Below, in pieces: positions 1 through 45,160 of a DNA stretch of 53,965 nucleotides. This DNA comes from Patescibacteria group bacterium (GTDB taxonomy: Bacteria; Patescibacteriota; Minisyncoccia; UBA6257; HR35), in assembly GCA_025060575.1 (NCBI GenBank), contig JANXBL010000002.1, positions 1 through 53,965 of the forward strand, written 5' to 3'. The position numbers and the translations under genes were made by a program. The notes under the pieces are model-generated. The model had not been told where the DNA came from and searched no databases. It was given only the letters and a program-made list of their open reading frames with translations. How positions within the stretch are numbered: position 1 is the first letter of the stretch; every line of letters starts with the position of its first letter.

Positions 1-76
1 TAGCTTGAAAAGTAGCTGAAATATCACCAGATCTAACATTTCTTAATAATTCTGAAGGAGAAGGAAAGTTTGGCAT
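1..76 (-). CDS. 5' end of an unidentified gene running off the window edge (MPNFPSPSELLRNVRSGDISATFQA...)
   Basis: Manual reverse-complement translation. ATG at 76-74, open through position 1. It lies 9 nt after the stop of the 369-aa ORF and on the same strand as the operon. Confidence 0.3.
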   Translation of the reverse strand, partial: MPNFPSPSELLRNVRSGDISATFQA

Positions 77-85
77 TTATGCTTA

Positions 86-1195
86 TTAATCAATTTTCAT
101 TGCATAGATACCAGCATCTAATCTGTTCCAAAAAATAATCTTAGAATTTACTAATTTTGGCCGTATCATATCTACTTTGACCTCAATTTCTATTTCCTTA
201 ACTATTTCATTTTTTTCTGGATCAAATACAACAACTTTATTATCATAGTTTTCTCCCATTAAATACCAATTATCAAAATCAAAATTATTAGACACAGCGC
301 AGACTAAAAATCTATCGAAAGTACATTTTTCTTGAACAGTTCTCCAATCAAAATTAAACCTATTTTCCCTGGTTTTAAAATCTATGATTCTACTGCCATT
401 CTGATTAGACACAAAGATCAAATCTTTATTTGACTGGCTTACTAAAAGAGAATAGTTTTCAGCTGGTTCTAAAAATAATGAAAGAAATGAAGGAGATTTA
501 ATATTCAGAATAAAAACTGGCGACGTTCCCCTTTTTTGATAGATCAAAATTTTATCAGGAGGTAAAAAATTCAATTCAGCGTTCAATATTCCTAAATTTC
601 TAATTTTTGTTATCTTACCTTCCCTAAAGTAGGCAAGATACGAAATTGACTTATCATCATTATAATGAATAATTAAGTCTTTATCGGTAAAAACAAAATT
701 TTTTGTCGTGCCAGGTAAAGTATATAGCTTATCATCTTTTATGTTAATTAGATTAAGACGATCAACTCGAATAACCATTTTCGATTTATCAGGAGAAAGG
801 AATGCCTTTTGAAAATCAATAACTTTATAAAGTTCTTGATAGGTTTCATCTTCTAAATTAATGACTTTTATAACAGCATCATCGTAGTCATAAACATAAA
901 GATTAGGATAGTCTAAATCTAGATAAAAAACTGCTTCGTTAATAACTGGTTGGAAAATAGATTTTTGCTGAGTTATATCAACTAATTTTGAATCTCCATT
1001 AGTTTTTTGATCTTGCCTTTTGTCATCTTCTCCGAGAATAGGCGTAGGTATGTTCTTATCTTCATTAGACCCTCGTTCAATAAATGGAGTTGACTTATTA
1101 TTTCTTGAGCCAAAATAACCTATCAAAACTATAATTATGAAAATTAGCAATAGTGCTATTCCTCCAATAATGATTATTTTTTTCTTCTGATCCAT
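86..1195 (-). CDS. Membrane-anchored extracytoplasmic protein of unknown family (one N-terminal TM helix, then a beta-rich domain), part of the VirB4 operon
   Basis: 369-aa ORF with ATG start. The hydrophobic stretch IIIIGGIALLLIFIIIVLIGYF follows a KKK motif. The rest is rich in short alternating hydrophobic/polar stretches. It starts 2 nt after the upstream ORF. Confidence 0.55.
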   Translation of the reverse strand: MDQKKKIIIIGGIALLLIFIIIVLIGYFGSRNNKSTPFIERGSNEDKNIPTPILGEDDKRQDQKTNGDSKLVDITQQKSIFQPVINEAVFYLDLDYPNLYVYDYDDAVIKVINLEDETYQELYKVIDFQKAFLSPDKSKMVIRVDRLNLINIKDDKLYTLPGTTKNFVFTDKDLIIHYNDDKSISYLAYFREGKITKIRNLGILNAELNFLPPDKILIYQKRGTSPVFILNIKSPSFLSLFLEPAENYSLLVSQSNKDLIFVSNQNGSRIIDFKTRENRFNFDWRTVQEKCTFDRFLVCAVSNNFDFDNWYLMGENYDNKVVVFDPEKNEIVKEIEIEVKVDMIRPKLVNSKIIFWNRLDAGIYAMKID

Positions 1196-1197
1196 AA

Positions 1198-1857
1198 CTA
1201 AAAACGGATAGGTTTAATTTCCATCGCTTTCTCGTTTAATTTTGAAAACACTTGTAACTTAAGAATACCTGAACGAGAATTTAAATCTTCATAACTAATA
1301 TCTCTTTTATTCGAGATAAACCCTTCATTAAGATACCACATTACCCGGTCAGGAGGAGAAATGAAGTTCTCAAACTTAAAAGTAAGTATATCGTTAGAAG
1401 CTAACTGACCATCAAAGGGTAAAGTTAAACCACCTGATATTTTGACCATTTTTAATCTTGGTTCCGGTAAGACTATATCTTGACGAAAAGTGTAAAGAGG
1501 CTGATCTCTGCCCAGCAAGGGATAGACACTAACTTCAACACTAAAGTTATTAAATCTAGAATTAAGCAAAAAGAAAACAACATTTGAATCCGATTGTTTA
1601 CTAATTTCTTCAGTATCCGTTTTGATTAACCATCGATAAACATAAGAACCTTCTTTATCGGTTAAGATTGTTTTGCCATTTTTAAAATTAATAATTTCTA
1701 CCCCGATCATAATTCCTTTTCTGATTGGTTGGTAAAAAAAATAAGCCATTGGTTCATCTTTTTCAGCCTTAGGCTTATCATACATAACTTGTCCAAATGC
1801 AATTGATAACCACAAAATTATCAAAACCAATATTGAAATTGCCTTAATTATTTTCAT
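1198..1857 (-). CDS. Secreted protein of unknown family (signal-peptide-like N-terminus), part of the VirB4 operon
   Basis: 219-aa ORF. N-terminus MKIIKAISILVLIILWLSIAFGQ resembles a signal peptide. Its ATG overlaps the VirB4 stop (ATGA at 1854-1857). Confidence 0.55.
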   Translation of the reverse strand: MKIIKAISILVLIILWLSIAFGQVMYDKPKAEKDEPMAYFFYQPIRKGIMIGVEIINFKNGKTILTDKEGSYVYRWLIKTDTEEISKQSDSNVVFFLLNSRFNNFSVEVSVYPLLGRDQPLYTFRQDIVLPEPRLKMVKISGGLTLPFDGQLASNDILTFKFENFISPPDRVMWYLNEGFISNKRDISYEDLNSRSGILKLQVFSKLNEKAMEIKPIRF

Positions 1858-3665
1858 TTTTGAAAAGATTCTTTAGCCTTTTTTAAAGCTATTAATTGCT
1901 CTGGCCTTGTTCTAATTATTTGATCTTCAGCATAGGAAGCTAAGACATAAACAGGTATTTTTTTTGTGCCGATCACTAATAAACCTTCGCCTCTTTCTGC
2001 TTGAAGTAAAAATTGCTTTTCACCTTCTGATAAAACAAAAATGCTTCCACAGAGATCAATTGTTGCCGGCGATTGTTTCATTAAAAAAGCAATGGCTGAG
2101 TTAGTAATAACTGGACGACCAAAAGGAGAACTTAAAAAGTCCTCCACATCTTGAGTAATCGTCGTTAAAGCTAAATTATATTTTCTTCCTCTCTTGATAG
2201 CATTTAATAAAAACTCGGCAGCAAAATCTTGACGCATCACCCACCAAGCTTCATCAATAATCACTAATCTTTTCTTCAACTCTCTTCTTATTCTGTTCAT
2301 AACATAGCTTAATATAACAAACATTCCTATAGGTCTTAAAATTTCCGGCAAGTCTTTAATTCCAAAAACCATAATCCTTTTGTTTAGTTCAACTGTTGTC
2401 TGTCTATTAACAAAACCGCTAAAGTTACCTTGAGTAAAGGGATAAAATTTAGCAGCTATTTCATCACCTCCGGTAATACTCCTTAAAATTCTTTCCAAGT
2501 CATTAAGAGTTGGAAAGGCTTTGGCCTGGGAAAAATCACGGTCAGGCAAAATGTTAAAGGAAGCATAAGTCTGATTAATCGCTTGATCTAAAATTGCTAA
2601 TTGTTCAGCTGAAAGTTTTTCACCAATAATAAGTTGACAAAAAGAGATAAGATCAGCTACATGCTCCTTATAGATATCAAGCGGATCTTCATTCTCTAAT
2701 ACCTTGGGCAAATCGAAAGGGTTAAAACCATATTCCGACTTAAGAGAAACCGGGATAAAAGAGCCTCCATAAAGCTCAGCAATGTTTTGATACTCATTTT
2801 CTGGATCAAGGATAAAAACATCTGTTCCCATCATTAAATTTCTCATCACTTCAAGCTTAGTAGTATAAGACTTACCCGCTCCTGAACGAGCCAAAATTAC
2901 CATATGAGGATTTTCATAGGTAAAACGATCAAGAATTACAAAACCAGCATTTTGAAGATTAACACCAAAAAATATTCCTGATTCACTAACCAATTCTGAA
3001 GATATAAACGGAAAACTAGTGGCAGCAGTGGATGAATTTAAAGGGTAATTAGTTTTGATTAAATCCATGGCTAAAGGCAAAGTAGTAAAAAAAGCATCTT
3101 TTTGTTGGAACATTATTGTTTTAGGAATAAAAAGCTCGCTTTCTAGAATTTTTAATACTTTTTGAGTTTTTATATCTAATTCCTTCTTATCATTGGCAAA
3201 AATAGTAATATACAGACCAACTTCCAACATTTTTTCTTGGGCTTGTACGAGAAGATCTCTCAATTGTTCGATGTTTTGGTAGGCAGCTTCTAATTCTGGC
3301 GATCTTACTTTATGAGCACTTTCTCGCTCTGATATTTGAGCCATAACTGATGCTAACTGTTTTTCCAATTTTTTTAGCGAAGATTTAGTCTCTAGAGGCG
3401 AAAAATATAAACTAAGATTAAAACTTTCATCTAAGTTTATTAGCCTTTCTAGCCAACCAGAAAAAAGAAAAGAGGGATATTCCAAGATTAATAATGATCT
3501 ACCATAGATGTTGCCTATCTGAAAATAATCTGTGTTAAATTCAGCTCCCGGCGGGGCAATTAATTCCTTGATCTTATCAAAAACAGACAGTTCTTCAATT
3601 TTGGCTATCTTTTCGGTTTGATCACTTTTCTTTTTATTTAAAAATGGTAATTTTATTGGCAACAT
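1854..3665 (-). CDS. virB4: VirB4/TrbE/TraC-family type IV secretion ATPase, middle and C-terminal ATPase part
   Basis: Walker A in ILARSGAGKSYTTK (about residue 261). Walker B with the VirB4-typical DEAW in RLVIIDEAWWVM. Upstream region (YPSFLFSGWLERL, coiled segment, FANDKKEL) resembles Gram-positive VirB4 (TrsE/PrgJ/Orf16-like) middle domains. Confidence 0.8.
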   Translation of the reverse strand: MLPIKLPFLNKKKSDQTEKIAKIEELSVFDKIKELIAPPGAEFNTDYFQIGNIYGRSLLILEYPSFLFSGWLERLINLDESFNLSLYFSPLETKSSLKKLEKQLASVMAQISERESAHKVRSPELEAAYQNIEQLRDLLVQAQEKMLEVGLYITIFANDKKELDIKTQKVLKILESELFIPKTIMFQQKDAFFTTLPLAMDLIKTNYPLNSSTAATSFPFISSELVSESGIFFGVNLQNAGFVILDRFTYENPHMVILARSGAGKSYTTKLEVMRNLMMGTDVFILDPENEYQNIAELYGGSFIPVSLKSEYGFNPFDLPKVLENEDPLDIYKEHVADLISFCQLIIGEKLSAEQLAILDQAINQTYASFNILPDRDFSQAKAFPTLNDLERILRSITGGDEIAAKFYPFTQGNFSGFVNRQTTVELNKRIMVFGIKDLPEILRPIGMFVILSYVMNRIRRELKKRLVIIDEAWWVMRQDFAAEFLLNAIKRGRKYNLALTTITQDVEDFLSSPFGRPVITNSAIAFLMKQSPATIDLCGSIFVLSEGEKQFLLQAERGEGLLVIGTKKIPVYVLASYAEDQIIRTRPEQLIALKKAKESFQK

Positions 3666-3666
3666 G

Positions 3667-4290
3667 CTAAATTGACTCGCTTAGTTTTTCAATAATCTTG
3701 TTGGGTATTTGACCCCATCTTAAATTAGGATTGTAAAGTTCAAAAAGAAGCTTAACCAATTCTTGATCTGTCAAGCGCTCAACCGATAGACCAATTGATA
3801 ACAATGACTCCTGAACATAAGACACTCTAATTTCTAATTGATTTATTTTTACTTCAACATCTTCATCAACTGCGCCCTTAATCTTTGATTTTACTCCCAA
3901 CCCGATGCTTACCGAATCATAAGGAACAATAACGTAAAAAATTTTCTTCATAATTTTATGATTCTCAAGATAATCCTCGAGAAAACTGATATACTCCTCT
4001 AATTGAAATTTTATTAATGGTTCAGTCTCTTGCTCTAATCGAAGATGAAGAATTTTCAAATAATCATTAATGTTCTCTAATCGAGAAAGAATTAAAACCT
4101 CCACAGGAAATTCTAAACCATCTAAGAAATTTTTAAATTGTCCGATGATAATTTCCTGTTCCTTTTCGGACATTAGGGAAAAATTTAAACCACCTATATT
4201 TAGAACCGCTCTCAATCCTCCATTATCCAAAAAATAAATATTGTTTTTGATCTCCTTAACTTTGATAAGATAAAAAGTTGGCAGATTCAT
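3667..4290 (-). CDS. VirB4 N-terminal-domain-like protein, encoded as a separate ORF
   Basis: 207 aa. The segment IYFLDNGGLRAVLNIGGLNFSLMSEKEQEIIIGQFKNFLDGLEFPVEVLILSR matches the usual N-terminal pattern of Gram-positive VirB4 proteins. Its stop TAG (3669-3667) lies 1 nt before the virB4 ATG, in a different frame. Confidence 0.55.
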   Translation of the reverse strand: MNLPTFYLIKVKEIKNNIYFLDNGGLRAVLNIGGLNFSLMSEKEQEIIIGQFKNFLDGLEFPVEVLILSRLENINDYLKILHLRLEQETEPLIKFQLEEYISFLEDYLENHKIMKKIFYVIVPYDSVSIGLGVKSKIKGAVDEDVEVKINQLEIRVSYVQESLLSIGLSVERLTDQELVKLLFELYNPNLRWGQIPNKIIEKLSESI

Positions 4291-4856
4291 TTTAGCGTTC
4301 GATAGAATTTAACATAAGGAAAAAGTCGATAAGGATTTCTAGGATTGATTATGTGGCGGTGAAATATTCGATTAATTTTTTCTGTCTGTTCTGAAATGGG
4401 AGCTGTTAAAGAAATGCTAACTTCTTCTTTAAAATCGGGAGCCACTTCGGGATAACTTATTTCGAGCTTGGCCTCTTCTAAGCCTATGATTGCTTTCTTT
4501 TCTCGGGGTTTAATTTCCAGTATTTCAGCTTCAACATTTACTTCTTTAGGCAAAGAAACTTCCTCATATTTAATCTTAGTAATTTTTTGCCAAACAAATC
4601 TTCTATTCCTCAAAAAATCAAAAAAATTAGGCAAAATGCTCATAAAAGGTTTACCATTAACATACAAAAAAGTCAAAACAAACGCTGAACCAAAGGAAAT
4701 CACGCCAACAATTAAACCTAATAATGAACTAAGTCTAAAAGCAGAAAAGCTTATTAAAAAAGCTCCCAAGAGAGCAAAAAGCTGTTTGAAAGTCACCAAA
4801 CCAGCTAATTTATCTTCAATGGTAATAAATTTAGGTACAGGAAATCTTTCCGGCAT
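4287..4856 (-). CDS. PrgI/VirB3-like small membrane protein
   Basis: 189 aa. The N-terminus PVPKFITIEDKLAGLVTFKQLFALLGAFLISF followed by two TM helices fits the PrgI-family pattern. ATGA overlap with the next ORF. Confidence 0.55.
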   Translation of the reverse strand: MPERFPVPKFITIEDKLAGLVTFKQLFALLGAFLISFSAFRLSSLLGLIVGVISFGSAFVLTFLYVNGKPFMSILPNFFDFLRNRRFVWQKITKIKYEEVSLPKEVNVEAEILEIKPREKKAIIGLEEAKLEISYPEVAPDFKEEVSISLTAPISEQTEKINRIFHRHIINPRNPYRLFPYVKFYRTLK

Positions 4857-4872
4857 ATCATTTATAATTTTA

Positions 4873-5712
4873 TTATAAGTTAGATAAATCTAAAAATTTT
4901 TCTTCTGAACTTTGGTCTTCCTTTTTGCGAACAATAACAATATCTTCATCCTTTTTTTCATATTCCTCCGAAGATGATAATTGATCAGTAGCGGTAGACT
5001 CTTGTGGTTGTGTACCATTTAAAAGTGGTGATTCGAGTTGTTCATCAGACAAAATCTCCTGAGCCTCTCCTCCTTGAACCTGCTGTTTAATGGTTGGTGT
5101 TAATACATTATCAGCTAAAGATTCATTAGTTTCTTGATAAGGAATATCTAAATTATTCTGCTGATTATCAACGTCTTTTTCTAATTCTTCAACCGTTTTC
5201 TCTTCTTCTAGTGTTTCGCTTAATTGAGGTAGTTCTTTTTGTCTAAACTCAGTCTCAGAGGAAATTGTATTCATACTCACCCCTTCATTATTTATCATAC
5301 TCTCTAACTTATTTTCCTCTTTAGCTTGCTGTCTCTCTTCTGGAAATTTAACTAAATTGGCCATAATTTCTAAATATCTTCTTTCTTTCTCGTCGCTAAT
5401 GTTCAGAGACTTCAATTCTGTTTCTGGCTTAGTCTGCCAAAGTTCTATTCTCTGCTTATCAAAATTTTGGAATACAAATTCAACAATTTTATCTCTTTCT
5501 GTATCATCAAAATTGATAAGTATTTCTTTTGACTTATTCTCACTTTCTTCCTTTGACCAATTTTCTCTAAACCAACCATCAAAAAATTTAAAAATCTCGG
5601 CAAATTTTATAAAACTTTCATTACTTTTGATGTTAAAATTTTCAACAACAAGCAGAAATTCATCATAAAACTCATCGCTCAGTAAAAAGTTAATAATTTT
5701 TTCTGGCGGCAT
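4873..5712 (-). CDS. Cytoplasmic, highly acidic protein with a long low-complexity E/D/Q/S-rich C-terminal half, unknown family
   Basis: The ORF track starts at a TTG (5721); the first ATG is at 5712. No TM segment. About 130 N-terminal residues look folded and the remainder is acidic and disordered-looking. Confidence 0.5.
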   Translation of the reverse strand: MPPEKIINFLLSDEFYDEFLLVVENFNIKSNESFIKFAEIFKFFDGWFRENWSKEESENKSKEILINFDDTERDKIVEFVFQNFDKQRIELWQTKPETELKSLNISDEKERRYLEIMANLVKFPEERQQAKEENKLESMINNEGVSMNTISSETEFRQKELPQLSETLEEEKTVEELEKDVDNQQNNLDIPYQETNESLADNVLTPTIKQQVQGGEAQEILSDEQLESPLLNGTQPQESTATDQLSSSEEYEKKDEDIVIVRKKEDQSSEEKFLDLSNL

Positions 5713-5907
5713 GATTAGCAATTAAATTTTCTTAGTCCAAAGATCGAATATTATCAACTTTAATTTTACCTAAATAATTGATTATTATTATGAAATTGAT
5801 AATCTCTTAGCAAAACTTTTCATCAAATTTATTGACCTAAACCGATAATCTTATTATTAATAAATTAAATATCCACAAAAGTAAGAAAGTTAACTTAATA
5901 AAAGCTA

Positions 5908-8640
5908 CTAGCCCCTTGCAGTTATGATAGTAGGACCACCGCCTCTAGCAGCCTCACTCAAAGCATCTCTTATTTGCGTCAAGTTATATGTATTTAAGTT
6001 ATTGATTAAAGCATAATTTGCCTCTAGACTAGAAGCACTTTGAGGGCTAAGTCTTCTTACCGCTTCAGCAAAAGCATTGATAGCAGTCTGATCTAAATTA
6101 CTAATTAACCTAGCATATTCTGCATTTATCATGCTCTGAAGCAATCTAGTAATCGCTTCTTCACTTAATCTTGAAAATGCTCTTGCTTGAACTTGAGCAC
6201 TTCTTTGAGAAATTTCTGATAGGTAATTTCTAAGCTGATTTAAATCCTGTGATATAGATTCAATAATACTTCTCGGCATACCTAATCTCCTTTTCTGCTC
6301 ATCTGTTAAAGCTGCGTCAAGAATATTTTCATCAATTATGCTCATTAAATTTCTTATTTCTTGATCTGAAAATCTACCTAATAAATTAGGTTGAGCATTA
6401 AATATGCGATTTAGTTCTCCTCTTATTAATGCTCTCTGCTGTTCTGATGCTAACCTTATTCCTCGGCTAATATTTTCTGCGTTTCTTTCTAGTGCTTGAG
6501 ACCAAATTCTTTGTCTATCTTCATCGGCAAACTTAGAGCTTAAAAGTTGGTTAAGAGAACCACTTCTTCTAAAAACTTCTGAGGGTAAACTTGATAAAGC
6601 TTCAACTGCTCTATTAGCAGCCTCCTGAATGTTTTCAGTCAACAATGCTTCATATAAACCTCTCGTTGCTCTATTCATTGATCTTCGTATTGGTTCTAGG
6701 TTGGGATTAGCAACTAAATTATTTCTTAGGTTATCGTTCTCTAAAAGTTCAATAGCGTCGTCAGCGTCAATATCTCTTATCCTATTAGCCAAAGCATTAA
6801 CCGCGATTGGTGATAGATTGGCAATAGCATTAGCATAATCTCTGTCGGCCATATATTGAAGCACCCTTCTTCCAGTATCTTTGCTAAGTCTAGAAAATAT
6901 TCCTTCTTGAATCTCAGCATCCATCCTAGAGACCACTGATAAATACTCCCTAAAAGCATCTCTGTTTTCAGAAATTGCGTCAAGAGCATAACCACTTGTC
7001 TTAATGTTTTCCTTTACCATTTTCGCCACTTCTGGCTCTCTGTTTATTTGCTGTAATACACTGACCAAATTCCTAGTAGCTCGTTCCCTTTCTTCACTCG
7101 TTCTAGCTTTCTCTATTCTTTCATAAGCATCTTTAAGCATAAACCCAGCTGTTTCTGCTTTTTCACCATATGCCACTTTTTTCATACCCTCTGATGTTTT
7201 TTGCATCATTTGACTCATCCTATACATTCTTCTTCCCCACCAGCCCAATCCTGCTCTTCTTCCTAAAAATCCTCCCACTTTTTCGAGGCCAGAAGCAATT
7301 TTGCCTCTTAATGGTTTGGCAGTTAGACTAGCCATTTTCATTCCTGTCCAAGCTAATGCCCCAATACCAAATTTTTGAGCAATATCTCCAATTTTGCCTG
7401 ACATTCTTACAGCGGTAATTAAACTTATTAAAAACCATCCCAAAATAATTGTTAAGGAAACAATAAATTGCATAGTGGCAGTGAGATTGTTAACATTAGG
7501 GGTGCTAGCGAAAAAATTATTCCTTAAAATGATTCCTAAAACCATCATAATTCCAAAAACAGGCACTACCAATAACCAAGAAGAAACATACTTCAACCAA
7601 TTATCAAAAGTATTACTTACCATTGAAGTTAAAGCACCAAAAGGAGGTTTGAATTTAGGAAAGGCTAAAGTAGCCACGGCGAATGAAGATACTGCCACTA
7701 AAAAAGTCAAAATTAGATATCTGGCTAAAGCGATAGCGGACAAAACAACTAAAGAAACAAAAATTATCATAGCAAAACCAACATAGAATAAGCTAACCCC
7801 AATTGCCACAAATGATTTCCTAAGAGCTTCGATATTTTCAGGTTCAAGCTTTGTTGTTGGTTGACCAATTTTATTTGACATCTGATTAGCCGATAGTGAG
7901 CTATCATCAACAAGTCTGTTTATTTCATTAAGAACGTTTACGGTATCTTTTTCTCCCTTACTCCAAGAGGCAGAAGCAATTAATGAGCCTAAAGCAGCAA
8001 CTGCCGGTACATTTTCTACTGTACCGTCTGGCCGTCTAACTTCAACTTCTCCACTTATCCCATTTTCAATTGCTCTCACAATATAAAAGGCCTCTTTAAT
8101 AAAGAGATAGGTAAAATCAATAAAAAGAGCAACAATAATGATTGTGAAAATCAAACTCTTAGCTGAATTATCTTCCCCCAAAATCCATTGGAAACCAGCC
8201 GCTAATGCTGAAAAAACCAAAATAACATAAGAAAACGTCTTTAGAATTGACCATAATATTTCTGCTGGAGGACTTTTCCCAGGAATGGTATCAAAAGGAT
8301 TAAGAGCAAGAACCCTATCAGCAAAAGGACCGAGAAGATTTAAGTTAACATACATAATTAGAGCATGTAAAAACCAACCAACGTATTTTAGGATAAAGGC
8401 GATTATTTCAACTATTTGTGCTACCAGGCCAATAATAAAGTCTTGAGGATTTGCTAAGACTGATGTAACCTTATATGTCGACCATATGGCAGGAGAAATC
8501 AAAAACCCATATTGATCAAAAAAGCTTATTGCCCTAGCCAAAAGACCCTGATTAGATTCTTGGCTGCCTTGAGCTCTGACAAAAAATGAAAACGCTAATA
8601 AGAATAATAAAATTGTTAATAAAAATAATCTACTATTCAT
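5908..8640 (-). CDS. Large polytopic membrane protein, VirB6/TrbL-like in architecture, with a C-terminal soluble helical domain of about 495 aa
   Basis: 910 aa. Signal-like N-terminus (LLFLLAFSFFVRAQG) and many hydrophobic helices up to about residue 415. The tail is Arg/Glu/Asn-rich, helical, and contains an internal duplication. Confidence 0.5.
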   Translation of the reverse strand: MNSRLFLLTILLFLLAFSFFVRAQGSQESNQGLLARAISFFDQYGFLISPAIWSTYKVTSVLANPQDFIIGLVAQIVEIIAFILKYVGWFLHALIMYVNLNLLGPFADRVLALNPFDTIPGKSPPAEILWSILKTFSYVILVFSALAAGFQWILGEDNSAKSLIFTIIIVALFIDFTYLFIKEAFYIVRAIENGISGEVEVRRPDGTVENVPAVAALGSLIASASWSKGEKDTVNVLNEINRLVDDSSLSANQMSNKIGQPTTKLEPENIEALRKSFVAIGVSLFYVGFAMIIFVSLVVLSAIALARYLILTFLVAVSSFAVATLAFPKFKPPFGALTSMVSNTFDNWLKYVSSWLLVVPVFGIMMVLGIILRNNFFASTPNVNNLTATMQFIVSLTIILGWFLISLITAVRMSGKIGDIAQKFGIGALAWTGMKMASLTAKPLRGKIASGLEKVGGFLGRRAGLGWWGRRMYRMSQMMQKTSEGMKKVAYGEKAETAGFMLKDAYERIEKARTSEERERATRNLVSVLQQINREPEVAKMVKENIKTSGYALDAISENRDAFREYLSVVSRMDAEIQEGIFSRLSKDTGRRVLQYMADRDYANAIANLSPIAVNALANRIRDIDADDAIELLENDNLRNNLVANPNLEPIRRSMNRATRGLYEALLTENIQEAANRAVEALSSLPSEVFRRSGSLNQLLSSKFADEDRQRIWSQALERNAENISRGIRLASEQQRALIRGELNRIFNAQPNLLGRFSDQEIRNLMSIIDENILDAALTDEQKRRLGMPRSIIESISQDLNQLRNYLSEISQRSAQVQARAFSRLSEEAITRLLQSMINAEYARLISNLDQTAINAFAEAVRRLSPQSASSLEANYALINNLNTYNLTQIRDALSEAARGGGPTIITARG
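5941..6234 (-). repeat. Intragenic protein-level repeat, copy 2 (residues about 803-900 of the 910-aa protein)
   Basis: LRNYLSEISQRSAQVQARAFSRLSEEAITRLLQSMINAEYARLISNLDQTAINAFAEAVR... Shared positions with copy 1 include FSRLS, LLQ.M, Y, NL, A.NA.A. Confidence 0.6.
6658..6954 (-). repeat. Intragenic protein-level repeat, copy 1 (residues about 563-661 of the 910-aa protein)
   Basis: FREYLSVVSRMDAEIQEGIFSRLSKDTGRRVLQYMADRDYANAIANLSPIAVNALANRIR... aligns by eye at roughly 40% identity with copy 2. Confidence 0.6.
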
Positions 8641-8743
8641 ATTTTATTAATAGTTATCATAATATACAGTAAAAAATTTATTTATTAATTTTTTTTTAAA
8701 AAAAATTTGTTAAAAATTGATATTTACTATGATTTTTGCATAT

Positions 8744-10645
8744 CTAATCGACATGTTTTTTAAAACCTAAACTTTTTAGCAACACTAATCTTTTAGTATT
8801 ATTTCTAACTGCATAAACTTTAGGTTGATCATTTTTTGTTATCCTTTGAGAACGACACCCTCTATTTATCTCTCTTTCCAGATTGTTTATTTCTAATCTT
8901 ATACCATACCATTCAAAGTAATTCTTGGTTAACACTGATTCAGAGACCGGTCTAATTCCTCTATTCAAGCTATCTCTCAAATCTCTAAAAAGATTGGTCG
9001 AGATGCCTAAGGCACCAGCGATAGCGTCGGCGTCTTGTAAAATAGCATTCACACTAGCCAAGATATCGTCTGCTTGTCCAAGAACTAATAGAAAATTATG
9101 ACCTTCTAGATCCTGCATAATACTTCCTAAAAAGTCTAATGGCAAGCCACCAAAAAGAGGACCACTTTTGATTCCTTTTAGTTTAAAAATATCTAAAAGT
9201 CTATTTACATTTCGAATAATATTAGCGTATCTTTCATTCACAAAAGCGCGTGTCGAACTGATTCTTTGTATCGTATTATTTATTTGAATTTGATTATTAG
9301 TTAGAGCAGCAATTACTTGGTCAACATTAATCGTAACAGTAGCTAAGTGAACCAGGTCGTTATCTGCCTTATTTTTAAGTTCTTCTAATCTTTTATTTAA
9401 TTCCTCACATTCAGGACTAGTTGTAGCTTTTAATTGTTCAATCTTGTCCCTATTTTCTCTTAATGAATCTTCTAAAATTTTAGTTAAACTTTTATAATGA
9501 TCTAATCTAGCAATAATTTCTTTGTTAAGATCGGTGCTAAAATTGGCAAAAGCTTGAGCACAAGCAATCCTAGGGTCAACATTTTTGCCTTGATCACCTT
9601 CGGATACTAATCTTTTACAAATATCCGGAATGGAAGGAGTTCCCGTTGACGAAGTGGTAGTAGAAAACGAAGTCGTAGAAAAAACTAATTTCCTATCTCT
9701 TTCTGTAAAAACTTGAAGGTTATGCGTACCTAATGTTTGATATTGATCAAAAACTTCGGAAAATCTTATAATTGGACGATATCTAAGTGTTATTGGTTTT
9801 CCAGAATCGCTAAAAACTTGAGTTTCGCTAACTAAAACATCACGAGGGTCAGGAAGATTTCTCATCCTCAAATCAATGTTTGTCCTGAAAATTGCATCAA
9901 TATTTTCCATAAGACCATCTGCGGTAGTTTTTTTAACAAAATTTCCATAATCACTGCTTATCGTGAAAGTTGCCGGTGTTAACGGTGTTGTGGGATTATT
10001 TGCTAGAAGAAAATTGCTAAGAGAAAAAGGCTTTAAGAAATTTAAAGTGAAATTAGCCAAAAAACCTCTATTTTGTTTTCTATCTTGATTCTGTCGTGAC
10101 ATTCCCAAATTAAAATTGGGGAAGATATTCTCGCAATCAGGAATCAAAGACAATTGAGAAAGAGCGTATTTAGAAAGGTCATAATTAGCAAAAGACGATG
10201 AAGCATAATCTTCTATCAAAGAACGATAATCGTTAGGAAGGCAATCTATTTGATTGCTTAAAGTTGATAATGTCTCATAGGCAGCAGCATACTCAGCATT
10301 TTCGATTAGGGTTTCTAATTTAGTCTGTTGTTTAGCTGGATCAGATAAATCACTAATCAAAGTTTGTATATCTTCAATTTGATTTTGAATCTCCCAAACT
10401 TGTAAAAGTTTATCTTGATAATTTCTCTTGAAAAAGTCTTCATACTGAACTTTAAGCAGATTATATATATTAAGATCGATATTTTTCAAATGCTCGGTTA
10501 AGGTTGTTTGAATAGCATCAAGAACAGAATTGACCGCTTTAAGCTGAGAATCACTAACGGGTACAGTCATAAACTGAGCAAAAATAAAATTACCACCAAT
10601 TAATAGCAGACTAACCAAAATTAGACCTATTACTATTCTCTTCAT
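8744..10645 (-). CDS. Secreted or surface protein, coiled-coil rich, unknown family; first gene of the T4SS-like region
   Basis: 633 aa. Signal-like N-terminus MKRIVIGLILVSLLLIGGNFIFAQ, several heptad-like helical stretches, and a Ser/Thr-rich patch (FSTTSFSTTTSSTGTPS). Confidence 0.55.
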   Translation of the reverse strand: MKRIVIGLILVSLLLIGGNFIFAQFMTVPVSDSQLKAVNSVLDAIQTTLTEHLKNIDLNIYNLLKVQYEDFFKRNYQDKLLQVWEIQNQIEDIQTLISDLSDPAKQQTKLETLIENAEYAAAYETLSTLSNQIDCLPNDYRSLIEDYASSSFANYDLSKYALSQLSLIPDCENIFPNFNLGMSRQNQDRKQNRGFLANFTLNFLKPFSLSNFLLANNPTTPLTPATFTISSDYGNFVKKTTADGLMENIDAIFRTNIDLRMRNLPDPRDVLVSETQVFSDSGKPITLRYRPIIRFSEVFDQYQTLGTHNLQVFTERDRKLVFSTTSFSTTTSSTGTPSIPDICKRLVSEGDQGKNVDPRIACAQAFANFSTDLNKEIIARLDHYKSLTKILEDSLRENRDKIEQLKATTSPECEELNKRLEELKNKADNDLVHLATVTINVDQVIAALTNNQIQINNTIQRISSTRAFVNERYANIIRNVNRLLDIFKLKGIKSGPLFGGLPLDFLGSIMQDLEGHNFLLVLGQADDILASVNAILQDADAIAGALGISTNLFRDLRDSLNRGIRPVSESVLTKNYFEWYGIRLEINNLEREINRGCRSQRITKNDQPKVYAVRNNTKRLVLLKSLGFKKHVD

Positions 10646-10669
10646 AATCTAATTGAATAATCTAATTGA
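10644..10669. repeat. Perfect 13-bp tandem direct repeat (ATAATCTAATTGA x2) abutting and overlapping the start codon of the 633-aa gene
   Basis: Read directly: 10644-10656 and 10657-10669 are identical. On the coding strand this is TCAATTAGATTAT TCAATTAGATTAT followed by G, which completes the ATG. Confidence 0.8.
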
Positions 10670-10712
10670 TATTATAAATTAATTTTACTAATAAAATTAT
10701 TAATAAAAAATG

Positions 10713-10784
10713 AGCCGGAGGTGGGATTTGAACCCACGACCTTGGCTTTACGAAAGCCCTGCTCTACCGCTGAGCTACTCCGGC
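10713..10784 (-). tRNA. tRNA-Thr (anticodon CGU)
   Basis: Manual cloverleaf: GCCGGAG acceptor, GCTC/GAGC D stem, anticodon loop TTCGTAA, T arm GTGGG-TTCAAAT-CCCAC. CCA is not encoded. Confidence 0.85.
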
Positions 10785-13898: not shown

Positions 13899-14378
13899 AT
13901 GCCAGCAGAAGGTGAAAATTTTCAGCTTAAATGGAAAACATTTACTCATATTAACCATCCTTATGGCGATTTAGTATGGCATCTTTTTTGGGGAATAATT
14001 ATTGGCATTTTTAGTGCTTATGCTATTTTCTATCACGATTATTGGTTATTAATTGTCAGTCTTATTGCTCTCATTTTTTTCTTCCATCCCAAATTTTATG
14101 AACCTAGATTGATGACAATCATTTTAACGTCTGAAGGAGTCCAAATTGATAAAAAATTTTATCCCTGGAAAAAATTTTCTCAATTTGAGGTTTTTGGTAA
14201 TAACAGAAGAAGATTTATTTTTCTAGTGCCTAACCATCTTTCAGTAGGAATTCATTTCCCTCTCGAAACTTTTTTTGTCGACGACCAAGAAGTAATTAAT
14301 TTTTTAAAAAAATTTCTTAAAGAGACTAGTGATTCTGTGCCAATATTTTTGAGAATTTATCGTCAATTCTTTACTTAG
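13899..14378 (+). CDS. Small membrane protein (two TM helices plus a soluble domain), unknown function
   Basis: The track ORF starts at 13785 inside leuS. The internal ATG at 13899 lies just outside leuS and behind a TATAAT box. TM helices include LFWGIIIGIFSAYAIF and LLIVSLIALIFFF. Confidence 0.5.
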   Translation: MPAEGENFQLKWKTFTHINHPYGDLVWHLFWGIIIGIFSAYAIFYHDYWLLIVSLIALIFFFHPKFYEPRLMTIILTSEGVQIDKKFYPWKKFSQFEVFGNNRRRFIFLVPNHLSVGIHFPLETFFVDDQEVINFLKKFLKETSDSVPIFLRIYRQFFT

Positions 14379-14451
14379 TGCGCGTGCCAGGATTCGAACC
14401 TGGGACCTGGTGTTTATAAGACACCCGCTCTAACCACTGAGCTACACGCGC
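14379..14451 (-). tRNA. tRNA-Ile with a genomically encoded UAU anticodon
   Basis: Manual cloverleaf: GCGCGTG acceptor, TAGCTCAGTGGTTAGAGC D arm, anticodon stem-loop GGTGT-CTTATAA-ACACC, T arm CCAGG-TTCGAAT-CCTGG, discriminator A. Confidence 0.8.
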
Positions 14452-15502: not shown

Positions 15503-17589
15503 CTTTCAAAAAACAATGGTTTTTTATGACCTAAAGCAAAATATATTAGTTGAGTTAGATGGGGAAGCCAAGGATGAAGCATTTTTAATGTTTCGATCAT
15601 TACTTCTTTGAAAACCATAGGATTGTTTTTTGATTCACCTTTCCAACTTTCCAAATAAATATCGCACAAATCATTCCAGAAAAACTTGTAAATTCTTTTG
15701 AGAGCAAGACCAAGTTCTAACTCTTCAATTTTTCGTTGACAGAATTTTCTAGTTGACCTCAAAGCACTTAATATTTTTTTATCTGCCGATGAGAGATTTT
15801 TATTCTTAAAATTTATATCCTTCTCCTCAAGTTTCATAAAGTAAAAACGATAAGCATTCCAAATCTTGTTGAGAAATTTTTTCCCTTGCTCTATTGGTTG
15901 TTCATCAAATCTAATGTCTTGATGGGTAGTCATTTGCCACAATAAACCAAATCTAACAGAATCACTGCCATATTTTGATATCAATTCTAAAGGATCAACT
16001 CCTGTCCCTAGGCTCTTAGACATTCTTTTCCCATCTTTAGTCAAAATTGTTGAGTGAATAAAGGCCCTTTTAAAAGGAGGCTTTTTAAGAAAGAATTGGC
16101 CAGAAAAAATCATTCTCGTTATCCAAAGATGCAAAATTTCTCTTGCTGAAGCAACAATATCCGCCGGATACCACTCTTTTTCATTCTTTTTATATAAAAT
16201 AGCAAAAGGCCAAAGGGCGGAAGAGAACCAGGTATCAAAAACCTCTTCCGTCATTTGCCATTCTGTCCCTTTACACAAAGAACATTTCCTTTTTGGTCTA
16301 TTAATACTAACTTGAAAACTTTGGGTATGACAGTGCTTACAATACCAGACTGGCATTTGTTGTCCCCACCACAGCTTTCTCGACACACACCAATCTCTTA
16401 CGTTTCTTAACCAATCAAAATAGGGCTTTCTGAATTTGGCTGGGTAGATATCAACCTTTCTATCTTTAACTAACTTATATGCAAGATTAGCCAGATAGTC
16501 CATCTTGATAAACCACTCATCAGATGGAATAACTTGAATCTCTGTACCACAACGTTCACAAAGAGGTATTTGATGACTAATTTCCTCAATTTTTTCAATC
16601 AAATTTTGTTTATCTAAATAGTCAACAATTTGTCTTCTTGCTTCTAGATAATCAAGTCCTTTAAATTGAACTGCGTTATGATTCATTTTACCCTTCTCGT
16701 CAATAACCCCAACCATTGGTAAATCGTGTCTAAGGCTAATTTCATAGTCGATAAGAGAATGAGCTGGTGTTACCTTTAAGATACCGGCGCCAAATTTTGG
16801 ATCCACTCTTTGATCAGTAACTATCGGCAATTCTCTCATCACTAGAGGTAAAATAGCGATCTTACCTACTAACTCGGACTTTGTTTCATCATGAGGATTA
16901 ACTGCCAAAGCGACATCGCCCAACATTGTCTCTGGTCGAGTGGTAGCAACAATGACAAAGCCACTTCCTTTAAGAGGATATTTGATGTAATAGAGATTGC
17001 CTTTTGCCTCTCGATACTCAATTTCCAAATCCGAAAGAGAAGTCTGGCAACGAGGACAAAAATTAACTGGTCTTAAAGCGCGATAAACTAAGCCTTTTCG
17101 ATAATAATCAACAAATGCTTTTTGGACTGTTTTGGTATATTCCTTGTCTAAGGTGAATCGAGATCTTGACCAATCTAAACTTAAACCTAATCGACGAAAT
17201 TGATTGAGAATGGTCTGACCGTATTTATCCTTCCATTGCCATACCCTAGCAATAAATTTCTCTCGACCTAATTCAAACCTTGTAACCCCTTCTTTCCTAA
17301 GTTCTTTTTCGACAACATTTTGAGTAGCAATACCAGCATGATCTGTTCCTGGTATCCAAACAATATGAAAGCCCGCCATCCTTTTATAGCGTGCTAGAGT
17401 ATCAAGAATAAAATTCTGAAAAGTGTGGCCCATATGAAGCGAGCCTGTAATGTTGGGAGGCGCAATCAAAATAATAAAATTTTTTTTCGATTTTTTAGCC
17501 CTAAAATAAGGGAGCCAGTATTTGTAAATTTTTTCTTCAAATTCTAATGGATTATAGTTTTTCCTTTCTAGAAGAAGTCGTTTTTTCAT
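15493..17589 (-). CDS. valS: Valyl-tRNA synthetase (short form, 698 aa)
   Basis: PPNITGSLHMGH, PGTDHAGIATQ, TTRPETMLGD (editing domain) and KMSKSLG motifs. The protein ends soon after the LHPWLPHLTQ helix. Confidence 0.9.
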   Translation of the reverse strand: MKKRLLLERKNYNPLEFEEKIYKYWLPYFRAKKSKKNFIILIAPPNITGSLHMGHTFQNFILDTLARYKRMAGFHIVWIPGTDHAGIATQNVVEKELRKEGVTRFELGREKFIARVWQWKDKYGQTILNQFRRLGLSLDWSRSRFTLDKEYTKTVQKAFVDYYRKGLVYRALRPVNFCPRCQTSLSDLEIEYREAKGNLYYIKYPLKGSGFVIVATTRPETMLGDVALAVNPHDETKSELVGKIAILPLVMRELPIVTDQRVDPKFGAGILKVTPAHSLIDYEISLRHDLPMVGVIDEKGKMNHNAVQFKGLDYLEARRQIVDYLDKQNLIEKIEEISHQIPLCERCGTEIQVIPSDEWFIKMDYLANLAYKLVKDRKVDIYPAKFRKPYFDWLRNVRDWCVSRKLWWGQQMPVWYCKHCHTQSFQVSINRPKRKCSLCKGTEWQMTEEVFDTWFSSALWPFAILYKKNEKEWYPADIVASAREILHLWITRMIFSGQFFLKKPPFKRAFIHSTILTKDGKRMSKSLGTGVDPLELISKYGSDSVRFGLLWQMTTHQDIRFDEQPIEQGKKFLNKIWNAYRFYFMKLEEKDINFKNKNLSSADKKILSALRSTRKFCQRKIEELELGLALKRIYKFFWNDLCDIYLESWKGESKNNPMVFKEVMIETLKMLHPWLPHLTQLIYFALGHKKPLFFERWK

Positions 17590-23301: not shown

Positions 23302-24576
23302 TTACCCAAACAATTTTTTATCCTCTAAATCATTGACTTTTTTTGAGTCTTGATGGTTGTCGAAATTTAATAAAACCTTTCCATACTCGCCGTCATAACC
23401 TGGTTCTAAAATTATTTCTTCTCTTCGAATTTTTTCTAAACATTCCAACAAATCCGAGTATTTCTGTTTCATTAAATCTTGATCAAAATTATCAATTAAA
23501 ATGTCTAATTCTGGTCCAATTTCATTAACTACCTGAAGGTAGTAAGAAAAAACTTTTTTTGATGTCGGCTCAGAATTTAAAAGCTGTCCAATAATCTGAG
23601 TAAGAGGTGTTGTTCTTTTAAATGGTGGCCTATTCTCGCTAAAAAAGTTGCTTGGTCTTTTAGCTAGTTTCTCCACCCTACTCATTACTCCTATTGTTAC
23701 TTTTCCTCCGCACATAGGACAAAGATATTTATTTTTCTTTGAATCCTCAGGAGAAAATCTAACTTTGCACAGCCTGTGGCCATCATAGTGGTATTTACCT
23801 TCTTCGGGAAAAAACTCAACTGTCATTAAAATTTTGTTTTCTTCGTTTGGTTCTTTCATTGCTTTGTAAAGTTGCGAGTAAGAAAGTTCGTTTAGTCTAA
23901 AAAGAGTTGCTTCTCTGCCTAAACGATGAGGGTGAGGAGAATGAGCGTCAGAGAAAGAAACAATTGAAAATCTATCAAGCTCTGGTAATCTCCAATTCAT
24001 ATTGGGATCAGATGAAAGCCCTGTTTCAACCGCAGTAACATAGTCAACATATTGCCCAAAGGCTTCATAAATTGAATCAAAGCCGGATATTGAACCATAT
24101 AGTGAAAACCAAGGTGTCCAAATGTGAGCAGGTATAAAAATTGCTTTTTCATAAATATCAAAAAGAATTTTCATAAAATCAATAACATCTAAAGCTAAAA
24201 TAGGCCTACCATCACTTCTCAAGTTAGAATACATAGATAATTTTTTGTTTAACTTTTCTACCAGATCGAATTTAGGCAAAATGACAATATAATGAATTCT
24301 CTTGACGATTCCTTGGCGAGAGAAAATAGAACTTATTTCACCTCCCAAAAGGAAAAAAACTTCTTCCTGGGAGTCTTTGAGCCGATAAATACCGTCATTA
24401 ACTTCAACTAATTTTTGTTTAATTTCTCTAAACCAATCGGGATGAGTAAAATCACCAGTAATTAAAATTTTCAATCCTTTCAAAGAAGCATAGTATGACA
24501 AATTCTCTAAATCTAAATTTTTTGAGCATGCCCGGGAATACTTTGAGTGCAAATGTAAATCGGCAAAAATATCCAT
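23302..24576 (-). CDS. PHP-domain endonuclease Q (EndoQ)-like protein with a Zn-finger
   Basis: ADLHLHSKYSRACS, PAHIWTPWFSLYG, FSDAHSPHPHRLGREAT, EGKYHYDGHRLC, CPMCGGKVTIGVMSRV and the C-terminal LEPGYDGEYGKV follow the order of motifs I recall for archaeal/Bacillus EndoQ. Confidence 0.7.
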   Translation of the reverse strand: MDIFADLHLHSKYSRACSKNLDLENLSYYASLKGLKILITGDFTHPDWFREIKQKLVEVNDGIYRLKDSQEEVFFLLGGEISSIFSRQGIVKRIHYIVILPKFDLVEKLNKKLSMYSNLRSDGRPILALDVIDFMKILFDIYEKAIFIPAHIWTPWFSLYGSISGFDSIYEAFGQYVDYVTAVETGLSSDPNMNWRLPELDRFSIVSFSDAHSPHPHRLGREATLFRLNELSYSQLYKAMKEPNEENKILMTVEFFPEEGKYHYDGHRLCKVRFSPEDSKKNKYLCPMCGGKVTIGVMSRVEKLAKRPSNFFSENRPPFKRTTPLTQIIGQLLNSEPTSKKVFSYYLQVVNEIGPELDILIDNFDQDLMKQKYSDLLECLEKIRREEIILEPGYDGEYGKVLLNFDNHQDSKKVNDLEDKKLFG

Positions 24577-33402: not shown

Positions 33403-33574
33403 TTTTTAATATTGTCTTAATTTCTTCTATTTTAAATTTATCTAATCGAGAAAAAATTTCAATAGTTAAGTGCTTTCCCATCTGTCGAAGATGAATTTTA
33501 TGATTAGGTAAAATATTTTTAATAAAACTAGCAATTTCAAAAATTTCCTTTTGAGTAATAGAAATTCTTTTCAT
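33359..33574 (-). CDS. Small hypothetical protein translationally coupled to dnaN
   Basis: 71-aa ORF whose ATG overlaps the dnaN stop (ATGA at 33571-33574). No recognisable motif. Its 3' end overlaps the convergent PBP gene by 44 nt. Confidence 0.35.
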   Translation of the reverse strand: MKRISITQKEIFEIASFIKNILPNHKIHLRQMGKHLTIEIFSRLDKFKIEEIKTILKIKYPHFQLFFVHRS

Positions 33575-34713: not shown

Positions 34714-34731
34714 CTTCGTACGTTTAAACAA

Positions 34732-44403: not shown

Positions 44404-45160
44404 TCTTTTAAGCTATTCAATAATTTTAGCCTGGTTATTTGAGGACAGATTAGTAGCATTTTTAAATGTCGGTCAGGGTAGTGCAGTGCTAATCAGAAAT
44501 AAAAATAATACCTATCTTTATGACACAGGAAGATCGCCCTATTTACTTTTTAAGGATTTGGACAAGCTCTTGCCTTTTTATCAGAAGAAAATCGACATTC
44601 TATTTATTTCCCATTTTGATAAAGATCATTATGGTTCAGTTTTTGAATTACTAGAACGTTATCAGGTTAGATTGATTGTTTTTAGTACGGAACTTGATTC
44701 TGCTAGCGATGCCGAAAAAATAAAAAGAGCTATTAAAAAAGCCAACATTCCAACCATCTTGCTTGTTCGAGGAAATAGCGTGAGAGATGATTATTTTAAA
44801 TTTATTATTTTGCACCCTTATCGCAAATTTAAAAAGGATAATGATAATTCTTTGGTTATAAAACTGATGGGGAGTAATGATTATCTTTTAACTGGTGATA
44901 TTGAAAGGGCGGGAATAAATGATTTAATAAAATGTTGCTGGCCTTATCTAGGGGCAGATTATTTTCTAGTTCCTCATCATGGTTCTCGATTTTCTATTGA
45001 TGAAAGTTTTTATAAATATATTAATCCTAAAATTTCAATAATTCAAGTCGGTTCCAATTACTATGGACATCCTCATCAAGAGACTATTCTTTCTCTATCT
45101 AAGCATTCTAAGATTATCTGGCGTACAGATTTAAACGGTTCTCTAATTGTAAAGGAGTGA
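44369..45160 (+). CDS. ComEC C-terminal metallo-beta-lactamase domain, encoded as a separate overlapping ORF
   Basis: LNVGQGSAVLI, ISHFDKDHYGS (HxDxDH-like), TGDIE and VPHHGS motifs. It overlaps the previous ORF by 35 nt in another frame. Confidence 0.7.
   Translation: MRQLILILILANLLSYSIILAWLFEDRLVAFLNVGQGSAVLIRNKNNTYLYDTGRSPYLLFKDLDKLLPFYQKKIDILFISHFDKDHYGSVFELLERYQVRLIVFSTELDSASDAEKIKRAIKKANIPTILLVRGNSVRDDYFKFIILHPYRKFKKDNDNSLVIKLMGSNDYLLTGDIERAGINDLIKCCWPYLGADYFLVPHHGSRFSIDESFYKYINPKISIIQVGSNYYGHPHQETILSLSKHSKIIWRTDLNGSLIVKE

Follow-up and report, generated by a model that had tools for sequence, protein, structure and literature searches.

Patescibacteria commonly carry a type IV secretion system (T4SS) without a relaxase. 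In a survey of 3,035 genomes (Quinonero-Coronel 2025, PMC12102498), such relaxase-less systems, whose VirB4 ATPases are monophyletic and which derive from machinery of mating-pair formation class FATA (MPF-FATA), were reported in 2,407. TrsD was the most abundant T4SS partner, genes for TrsD, PrgI, VirB6 and VirB2-like proteins were found near virB4, and the loci often lay near dnaA/dnaN, rnpA and yidC. In Southlakia epibionticum, transposon sequencing (Tn-seq) showed that the T4SS is essential for epibiotic growth independently of comEC; this system has no recognizable relaxase or coupling protein and was proposed to deliver proteins or DNA (Wang 2023, PMC10633639). Here we describe a nine-gene operon at one end of a 53,965-bp contig (JANXBL010000002.1), which was analyzed as a whole and is called the window below. 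The region is very probably a chromosomal, relaxase-less T4SS operon of the Patescibacteria type in an ultra-small Paceibacteria (Parcubacteria) genome, and to the complete explanation, in which this chromosomal T4SS is vertically inherited and MPF-FATA-derived, we give a probability of about 0.8. The operon is a further example of the system described across the Patescibacteria in 2023-2025, not a new kind.

The original prediction for this DNA was that of a non-conjugative T4SS core on the chromosome of a bacterium with a small genome, and this is supported by the Patescibacteria relatives, the housekeeping synteny and the lack of mobility genes reported below. It had also taken the accessory subunits and substrates of such clusters to be uncharacterized; the system as such is not obscure, being known to be essential in S. 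epibionticum and surveyed in 3,035 genomes. Finally, it had counted five or more partner proteins of no recognizable family. At least three of these belong to families that recur among the 80 related loci, as a beta-propeller protein (family c4), a tandem fibronectin type III (FnIII) protein (c1) and a T4SS_pilin protein (c6); the other two, a 633-aa secreted protein and an acidic protein, do stand as clade-restricted, with no link to the families c12 and c9 that occupy their positions elsewhere.

Nine open reading frames (ORFs) run in the same direction on the minus strand, from position 10645 down to the contig edge at position 1, and all eight complete ORFs lie where they had been predicted. 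Adjacent ORFs overlap by 4 nt at 1854-1857 and 4287-4290 and are separated by 1 nt at 3666 and by 2 nt at 1196-1197; longer intergenic gaps lie at 5713-5907 and 8641-8743, all as first described. Internal promoters had been predicted in the two longer gaps; a promoter consensus scan found 49 sites versus 46.6 in shuffled sequences, which is no enrichment. The GC content of the cluster (0.30-0.36, compared with 0.28-0.40 elsewhere in the window) bears out the earlier remark that its composition matches the surrounding chromosome. Since the window is the entire contig, the ninth ORF is truncated where the assembly ends.

Relatives were sought in one genome per GTDB species, and at least 596 loci encode a relative of the window VirB4. 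The comparative set consists of 80 related loci from other species, which together with the window make 81 loci. The best 80 VirB4 relatives are 40-68% identical to the window protein, and all organism-named records among them are metagenome-assembled genomes (MAGs) of Patescibacteria, a few records being titled only "bacterium." The closest VirB4 (68% identity) comes from Candidatus Parcubacteria bacterium KatS3mg097, whose genome is complete and 680 kb in size. Placement in the Patescibacteria VirB4 clade is expected from a proxy, namely the at least 596 matching species representatives and the Patescibacteria identity of every organism-named record among the best 80. In addition, four closer relatives that share the flanks and gene order of the window were fetched; their VirB6-like proteins are 39-48% identical to that of the window. 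Two of them, L082 and L084, have contigs that extend beyond the operon.

The core assignment is carried by the 603-aa product of the fourth ORF from the contig edge (1854-3665, minus strand). It scores 363.7 bits against NCBIfam conju_CD1110, a Firmicutes-type family, above the curated cutoff of 325, and matches the Pfam families P-loop_TraG, CagE_TrbE_VirB, AAA_10 and DUF87, so that the predicted identity as a VirB4 ATPase holds. A Walker A motif (SGAGKS) and a Walker B motif (IIDEAWW) are readable. Among NCBIfam models, CD1110 ranks above the Mycoplasma integrative conjugative element (ICE) VirB4 (293 bits), followed by TraC-F and VirB4/CagE. Among solved structures, the Thermoanaerobacter VirB4 domain 4AG5 comes closest (expectation value [E] 1.7e-34). 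The conju_CD1110 match covers profile positions 186-734 of 752, and the protein is without the canonical N-terminal ~185 residues of VirB4. A counterpart of this N-terminal domain is encoded by the preceding gene (3667-4290, minus strand), whose 207-aa product matches NCBIfam TrsD/TraD (E 8e-5) and positions 106-234 of VirB4_plasma (E 1.5e-10); an identical copy of this protein has a precomputed match to the TraC-like family PF26593. In local searches, a TrsD-like gene directly precedes VirB4 in 79 of the 81 loci. Five relatives (L008, L031, L052, L067 and L072) instead encode a fused TrsD-VirB4 protein of 768-794 aa, and with a 769-aa fused VirB4 the two window proteins align collinearly (residues 2-188 of the 207-aa protein to 7-193, and residues 33-600 of the 603-aa protein to 203-768). 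The fused forms indicate that the TrsD gene was split or fused more than once, or that the two were ancestrally fused. Thus, the two collinear ORFs that had been read as a split VirB4 are real, and they represent the lineage-typical TrsD and VirB4 pair rather than a broken gene.

Upstream of TrsD lies the gene for a 189-aa protein with two transmembrane segments (4287-4856, minus strand). On its own it scores 19.4 bits (E 1.6e-3) against Pfam PrgI, below the gathering threshold (GA) of 27. Its positional orthologues give a clearer picture: 46 of 47 match PF12666 (best E 9.7e-12), 11 match TcpE, and the PrgI-like gene is located immediately upstream of TrsD in 77 of the 81 loci. The proposed PrgI/VirB3-like identity is thereby upheld through the orthologues, with the window copy itself remaining sub-threshold.

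The 910-aa polytopic protein (5908-8640, minus strand) had been called VirB6-like. Pfam and NCBIfam scans gave no direct TrbL/VirB6 match for it, and we dropped a direct assignment by these databases; a PDB sequence-profile search with a 48-member alignment of the VirB6 family returned coiled-coil noise only. An iterative hidden Markov model (HMM) search places the protein in a family that occupies this position in 47 loci, where it invariably precedes PrgI and is separated from it by a single gene. TrbL/VirB6 (PF04610) is matched by 6 of the 48 family members (best E 1.9e-7) and TrbL_4 by 2 of 48. The protein is therefore a putative VirB6 by transitive homology only, and the earlier label stands for the family rather than through any match of the window protein. 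The protein has a signal peptide, and a hydropathy heuristic gives about 8 transmembrane segments in residues 1-470. Residues from about 470 to 910 (window 5908-7300, minus strand) form a ~440-aa cytoplasmic helical tail with two MgtE_N-like repeats (Pfam E 2e-7), and the sole Pfam match of the protein is MgtE_N at residues 569-634 (31.9 bits). As MgtE_N occurs in only 2 of the 48 family members, this domain is a clade-specific addition to VirB6. The tail puts the protein into the category termed "extended VirB6" in a FEMS review.

Two proteins encoded between VirB4 and the contig edge are predicted to be anchored at their N termini. The larger (369 aa; 86-1195, minus strand) is a full-length member of c4, a family found in 57 related loci. 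An HMM of c4 built without the window protein matches it across its full length (E 7e-26), and hhalign connects it to c4 with 99.7% probability. Its AlphaFold2 (AF2) model, with a mean predicted local distance difference test score (pLDDT) of 86.6 and a predicted template modeling score (pTM) of 0.77, consists of a transmembrane helix (residues 3-29), a disordered stretch (30-77) and an extracellular propeller of 7-8 blades (80-369), and Foldseek retrieves propellers such as Lp49 (3bws) at E 1e-9. Residues K290, C291, C299, W310 and D342 are invariant, C291 and C299 forming a conserved Cys pair. Thus, it is anchored and beta-rich, as had been noted, and it belongs to a recurring propeller family that the first reading had missed. 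The smaller protein (219 aa; 1198-1857, minus strand), initially described as secreted and without a family, is instead N-terminally anchored and a divergent relative of c1 (hhalign probability 82.6%, E 1e-5, 149 columns), with which Y74, W76 and W174 are invariant. Its AF2 model (pLDDT 73.9) contains two FnIII/immunoglobulin-like beta-sandwich domains, and Foldseek finds tandem FnIII receptors (E 6e-4, TM-score about 0.33). VirB8, which has an NTF2 fold, was considered for both anchored proteins and ruled out by these models; the statement that no VirB8/TcpC-like protein is seen thus holds for the two proteins modeled.

The first gene of the operon (8744-10645, minus strand) encodes a 633-aa, largely helical, Cys-rich protein with a Sec signal. 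It matches no Pfam, NCBIfam or PHROG family, and a PHROG scan of the orphan proteins of the operon gave nothing meaningful. At E ≤ 1e-3 only 8 proteins among 1.84 billion representatives match it. Its counterparts in four syntenic relatives share 40-50% identity with it, and six of its Cys are kept in relatives, L002 among them. Neither HMM nor hhalign connected it to c12, the secreted family found in this position elsewhere, and it is kept as a positional analogue of c12 only. The first gene extends as far as the VirB6 start codon in three relatives, in which its product terminates in ...INLR. The window copy stops about 35 codons short of this point (8744-8850, minus strand), which accounts at least in part for the 103-nt gap at 8641-8743, and the version in L082 is shorter still (517 aa). 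Another frame of this gap reads ...AKIIVNINF*, resembling the lost tail. The short C terminus may be a frameshift, a decayed tail or an assembly error.

Between VirB6 and PrgI is a gene for an acidic cytoplasmic protein (4873-5712, minus strand; 279 aa from ATG, 282 from an upstream TTG) with 67 Asp + Glu compared with 32 Lys + Arg. It had been described as a 280-aa, acidic, disordered-looking cytoplasmic protein; acidity and location stand, the length is 279 aa from the ATG, and a conserved N-terminal domain of ~125 aa precedes a variable acidic linker and an invariant C terminus, ...FLDLSNL. Identity to four relatives is 40-42%, and ...FLDLSNL persists even in L002, whose protein otherwise shows no more than 25% identity. 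In 49 loci this slot is occupied by family c9. No sequence link between the acidic protein and c9 was found (hhalign 1.1%), and we treat the two as positional analogues only. The C termini of c9 carry ...DPYREP... in 22 of 49 members and ...(V/I)(D/N)L(K/R)... in 10 of 49 (32 of 49 with either), and both motifs occur 0-1 times at the C termini of every other family examined. Short C-terminal motifs on both c9 and the acidic protein suggest a common architecture of globular domain, linker and docking peptide. The C-terminal motif of the slot protein resembles a docking peptide carried by a disordered linker.

The ninth ORF starts at position 76, and its first 25 codons (MPNFPSPSELLRNVRSGDISATFQA...) run off the contig edge (1-76, minus strand). 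This stub is 55-60% identical over 20-22 aa to the N termini of the 320- and 328-aa proteins encoded at the same position in L082 (18027-18989) and L084 (17943-18929). These orthologues match PF18895 (T4SS_pilin) with 38 bits (GA 26.6), and in family c6 T4SS_pilin is found in 50 of 54 members and TrbC/VirB2 in 11. Mainly by synteny, together with the short match of 20-22 aa, the ninth gene is a candidate VirB2-like pilin-domain gene of family c6. Behind the pilin domain, the L082 and L084 proteins have a C-terminal domain of ~200 aa (SACNHF ... GHGHVG), for which CHAP matches at its Cys...His region are sub-threshold (E 0.027 and 0.27) and for which a PDB sequence search found nothing. C-terminal additions vary within c6, one member carrying Peptidase_M23 (E 2e-33) and one CHAP. 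The ninth-gene orthologues may be fusions of a pilin to a peptidoglycan hydrolase. The window contains no hydrolase or pilin because the contig ends 25 codons into a gene that has a pilin domain in relatives, and the earlier statement that no VirB1-type hydrolase is present holds only for that reason. The only other contig with the 369-aa protein ends at the same place as the window contig.

ORF clustering gave the following order for Paceibacteria in the direction of transcription: c12 (secreted), VirB6, c9 (cytoplasmic), PrgI, TrsD, VirB4, c17/c19 (small, with 2-4 transmembrane segments), c1 (N-anchored), c6 (three transmembrane segments) and c4 (N-anchored), closed by a convergent YidC. This family order is conserved across about 80 species. 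The window clade is without the small c17/c19 gene found behind VirB4 in most Paceibacteria loci. L002 has a 112-aa homologue of c17 (E 9.5e-5) outside its operon, on the opposite strand (15717-16055, minus strand), between yidC and a CofE-like (F420_ligase) gene.

The flanks are shared as well. The common synteny consists of LeuRS, UPF0102, a 107-aa gene, the operon, convergent YidC and RNase P protein (RnpA), DnaX and RpoD; in L082 and L084, and likewise in L002, the convergent YidC and RnpA genes follow directly after the ninth gene, and then come DnaX and RpoD. Such flanks are retained even where the operon proteins share just 40-55% identity with those of the window, which points to vertical chromosomal inheritance of the operon. 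On the other side, a tRNA-Thr(CGT) gene (10712-10784, minus strand; ARAGORN) marks the operon boundary. It is located upstream of the operon in both the window and L002, and its 3'-end sequence recurs in L082. DnaN (33571-34731) and DnaA (34895-36271) are encoded ~23 kb from the operon, which fits the published association of Patescibacteria T4SS loci with the origin region (PMC12102498).

Mobility genes were looked for by Pfam scans, and no relaxase, type IV coupling protein (T4CP) or integrase was found among the larger ORFs of the window or the cluster. The sole relaxase match in the cluster was Relaxase_C at E 0.95 on a coiled coil. A coupling protein was found neither in the window nor in the flanks of L002, L082 and L084, and the window contains no meaningful or oriT-like repeats. 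These scans agree with the earlier report that relaxase, VirD4, integrase and oriT-like repeats are not seen in the window. Two ways in which an ordinary conjugative element might have been overlooked were also followed up. For att-like repeats of the tRNA-Thr 3' end, there is no second copy in the window and a single copy in L082, so that the tRNA appears to be a conserved neighbor rather than an integration scar. For the region beyond position 1, the relatives have YidC, RnpA, DnaX and RpoD there, which makes a relaxase/VirD4/integrase module past the window edge very unlikely.

Compared with the Paceibacteria T4SS of the survey (PMC12102498), the operon shows no difference in the defining set: an MPF-FATA VirB4, adjacent TrsD and PrgI/VirB3, VirB6 nearby, a candidate VirB2-like gene near virB4 (by synteny), no relaxase or T4CP nearby, and dnaA/dnaN, rnpA and yidC in the vicinity. 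The survey leaves the other neighbors as unannotated "grey" genes, whereas here these slots are filled by the c4 propeller, the c1 tandem FnIII protein, a c9-slot protein with a short C-terminal motif and a clade-restricted, Cys-rich secreted protein. The S. epibionticum ML1 locus (SEML1_0006-0019) is likewise a chromosomal system of monoderm type with VirB3-, VirB4-, VirB6- and TrsD-like proteins, pilin-like genes in the cluster and no recognizable relaxase or coupling protein. Unlike the window clade, however, it belongs to the class Saccharimonadia, encodes six VirB2-like pilins in an array and carries, downstream of virB4, peptidase/lysozyme genes; the window clade has one pilin-domain gene, possibly with a CHAP-like tail, and accessory proteins of its own. 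Only for Southlakia has essentiality been shown.

The MPF-FATA systems pCF10 Prg/Pcf, pIP501 Tra, pGO1 Trs and C. difficile CTn2 share with the operon the VirB4 class, PrgI/VirB3, a polytopic protein of PrgH/VirB6 type, a separate TrsD-type domain (as in pGO1) and the lack of an outer-membrane core. In contrast to these conjugative systems, the window operon is without relaxase, T4CP, oriT, integrase and PrgB-type adhesin, it sits in fixed chromosomal synteny and not in a mobile element, it has a candidate VirB2-like pilin domain (by synteny), which Gram-positive systems lack, and there is no NTF2-type VirB8 (PrgL/TraM/TcpC) in the two anchored proteins modeled.

How might such a machine work? 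The operon appears to encode an engine at the cytoplasmic membrane, composed of VirB4 with a separate TrsD-like domain, PrgI/VirB3 and the extended VirB6, and a predicted envelope and surface set, composed of the Cys-rich secreted protein, the anchored FnIII protein, the anchored propeller and, by synteny, a pilin-domain protein. VirB4/TrsD docked on PrgI and VirB6 would power assembly, and the product would be a wall-spanning conduit or a short pilus of the pilin-domain protein. The FnIII and propeller proteins would scaffold this conduit or contact the host surface, and together with the Cys-rich protein they could scaffold or tip it. The machine would then operate where the cell touches a host bacterium and pass proteins or other macromolecules through this contact. 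Since the operon comes without a relaxase or coupling protein, a non-conjugative use is favored, and a role in host interaction is suggested by the homologous Southlakia system, which is essential for epibiotic growth. By this analogy we lean, somewhat, toward a function in host-bacterium interaction rather than conjugation; for any specific substrate our confidence is low.

Several points weigh against this reading. On their own, the window VirB6-like and PrgI proteins are below Pfam thresholds, and the pilin assignment draws on 25 codons plus synteny. A VirB8-like NTF2-fold protein (PrgL/TraM/TcpC) was not found among the two N-anchored proteins modeled. The proposed function is argued wholly by analogy, and the species that provides the analogy is in another class, Saccharimonadia, with a different accessory set that includes the pilin array. 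In addition, T4CP homologues are common elsewhere in Patescibacteria genomes, and our search for them covered the window and the flanks of the relatives, so that a coupling protein may be encoded at a distance.

There are three other explanations for the operon. It could encode an attachment organelle only, that is, a short VirB2-like pilus or surface scaffold with no translocated substrate. The pilin-domain gene in the operon of relatives, the lack of a coupling protein nearby in the window and the folds of the anchored proteins are compatible with this, since tandem FnIII domains and beta-propellers are typical binding modules, and possible T4SS pili have been reported, as tubular structures, where parasite and host meet (bioRxiv 10.64898/2026.06.21.733656). 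However, the window also encodes the type IV pilus ATPase PilB, and type IV pili are the structures tied by experiment to adhesion in Saccharibacteria; a pure adhesin would also hardly account for the VirB6 channel subunit with its extension, or for the conserved cytoplasmic acidic protein and its docking-type C-terminal motif. We consider a pure attachment organelle unlikely. A device for DNA import or export, either Ced-like uptake or release of chromosomal DNA, with a distal T4CP/relaxase or none, is in our judgment decidedly improbable. The archaeal Ced system (CedA/CedB) is also a non-conjugative chromosomal machine with a VirB4-family ATPase in a monoderm cell. In favor of a DNA device, the window VirB4 has weak partial matches to the DNA-import ATPases CedB (47.5 bits) and CedD (26.6 bits), recA, comM and comEC lie in the same window, and in the survey (PMC12102498) T4CP homologues are widespread, although distal, and T4SS loci of the class ABY1 co-localize with competence genes. 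Yet these scores are far under the family cutoffs of 700 and 600, so that the operon does not qualify as a Ced DNA-import system, and the partner proteins are unrelated to those of Ced. Moreover, the window has a separate ComEC/PilB route for DNA uptake, and relaxases occur in only 103 of the 3,035 surveyed genomes. In Southlakia, deletion of comEC ends competence and leaves viability unaffected; its T4SS, by contrast, is essential, and its distal T4CP non-essential.

The adjoining tRNA gene, the ancestry of the operon in MPF-FATA conjugation machinery (PMC12102498) and the possible C-terminal decay of the first gene could all be read as traces of a decaying ICE at tRNA-Thr from which the relaxase, the coupling protein and the integrase are gone. 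This is extremely improbable, and we rejected it: the window contains no relaxase, integrase or att repeats, and the composition of the operon is that of the host chromosome. The nine ORFs are intact, their family order is kept in about 80 species, and the operon is bordered directly by housekeeping genes at either end. Both these flanks and, in L002 and L082, the tRNA-Thr neighbor recur next to operon proteins that have diverged as far as described above. One further idea keeps the T4SS assignment and reverses the direction of transport. The conserved accessory set, made up of the Cys-rich secreted protein, the anchored FnIII and propeller proteins and a pilin-domain protein whose wall-hydrolase tails vary, could form a host-piercing feeding conduit; rather than export effectors, the T4SS would take in macromolecules of the host (RNA, nucleotides or lipids), with the acidic protein as an adaptor for VirB4/TrsD or the VirB6 tail; its C-terminal peptide (...FLDLSNL, or DPYREP in other clades) would then be a docking adaptor that replaces the coupling protein. 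We regard this as quite unlikely.

The remainder of the window is filled with housekeeping and envelope genes: LeuRS, a second class-I aminoacyl-tRNA synthetase, HisRS, a Mur ligase, LytR, a ClpB-like ATPase, a FtsA-like protein, PBP1, tmRNA, a PilB-type ATPase (29624-31297), PGK, ComM, RecA, ComEC and PolA. ComM and RecA are encoded just upstream of ComEC on the other strand. ComEC itself is present as two overlapping plus-strand ORFs (43270-44403, Competence; 44369-45160, metallo-beta-lactamase), which is either a natural split or a frameshift. dnaN and dnaA, at 33.5-36.3 kb, adjoin the most AT-rich stretch of the window (GC 0.28), and gene orientation and GC skew reverse at about 41.5-43 kb. 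This 10-kb region probably contains the replication origin, some 23-31 kb away from the T4SS operon.

Three further features were observed outside the operon. A tRNA-Ile with anticodon TAT (UAU) is located at 14378-14451 (minus strand; ARAGORN). Most bacteria decode AUA by a lysidine-modified CAU tRNA, and the tRNA-Ile(UAU) may point to TilS-independent decoding. A 424-aa ORF (23302-24576, minus strand) between the ClpB-like gene and a tRNA-Pro/Val pair has no Pfam match at E ≤ 1e-6. In L082 (the relative KatS3mg093), LeuRS is in four fragments of 121, 56, 150 and 445 aa (4804-7298), which suggests assembly errors or a pseudogene in that MAG; the window, L084 and L085 each have the gene intact.

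A large part of bacterial diversity belongs to the Patescibacteria, most of which seem to spend their lives attached to other microbes. A relaxase-less T4SS is nearly universal among them and essential in the one species tested. To this system the locus adds a concrete parts list for Paceibacteria: an anchored beta-propeller, an anchored tandem FnIII protein, a predicted pilin with variable tails, and a slot protein with a C-terminal motif that looks like a docking peptide.

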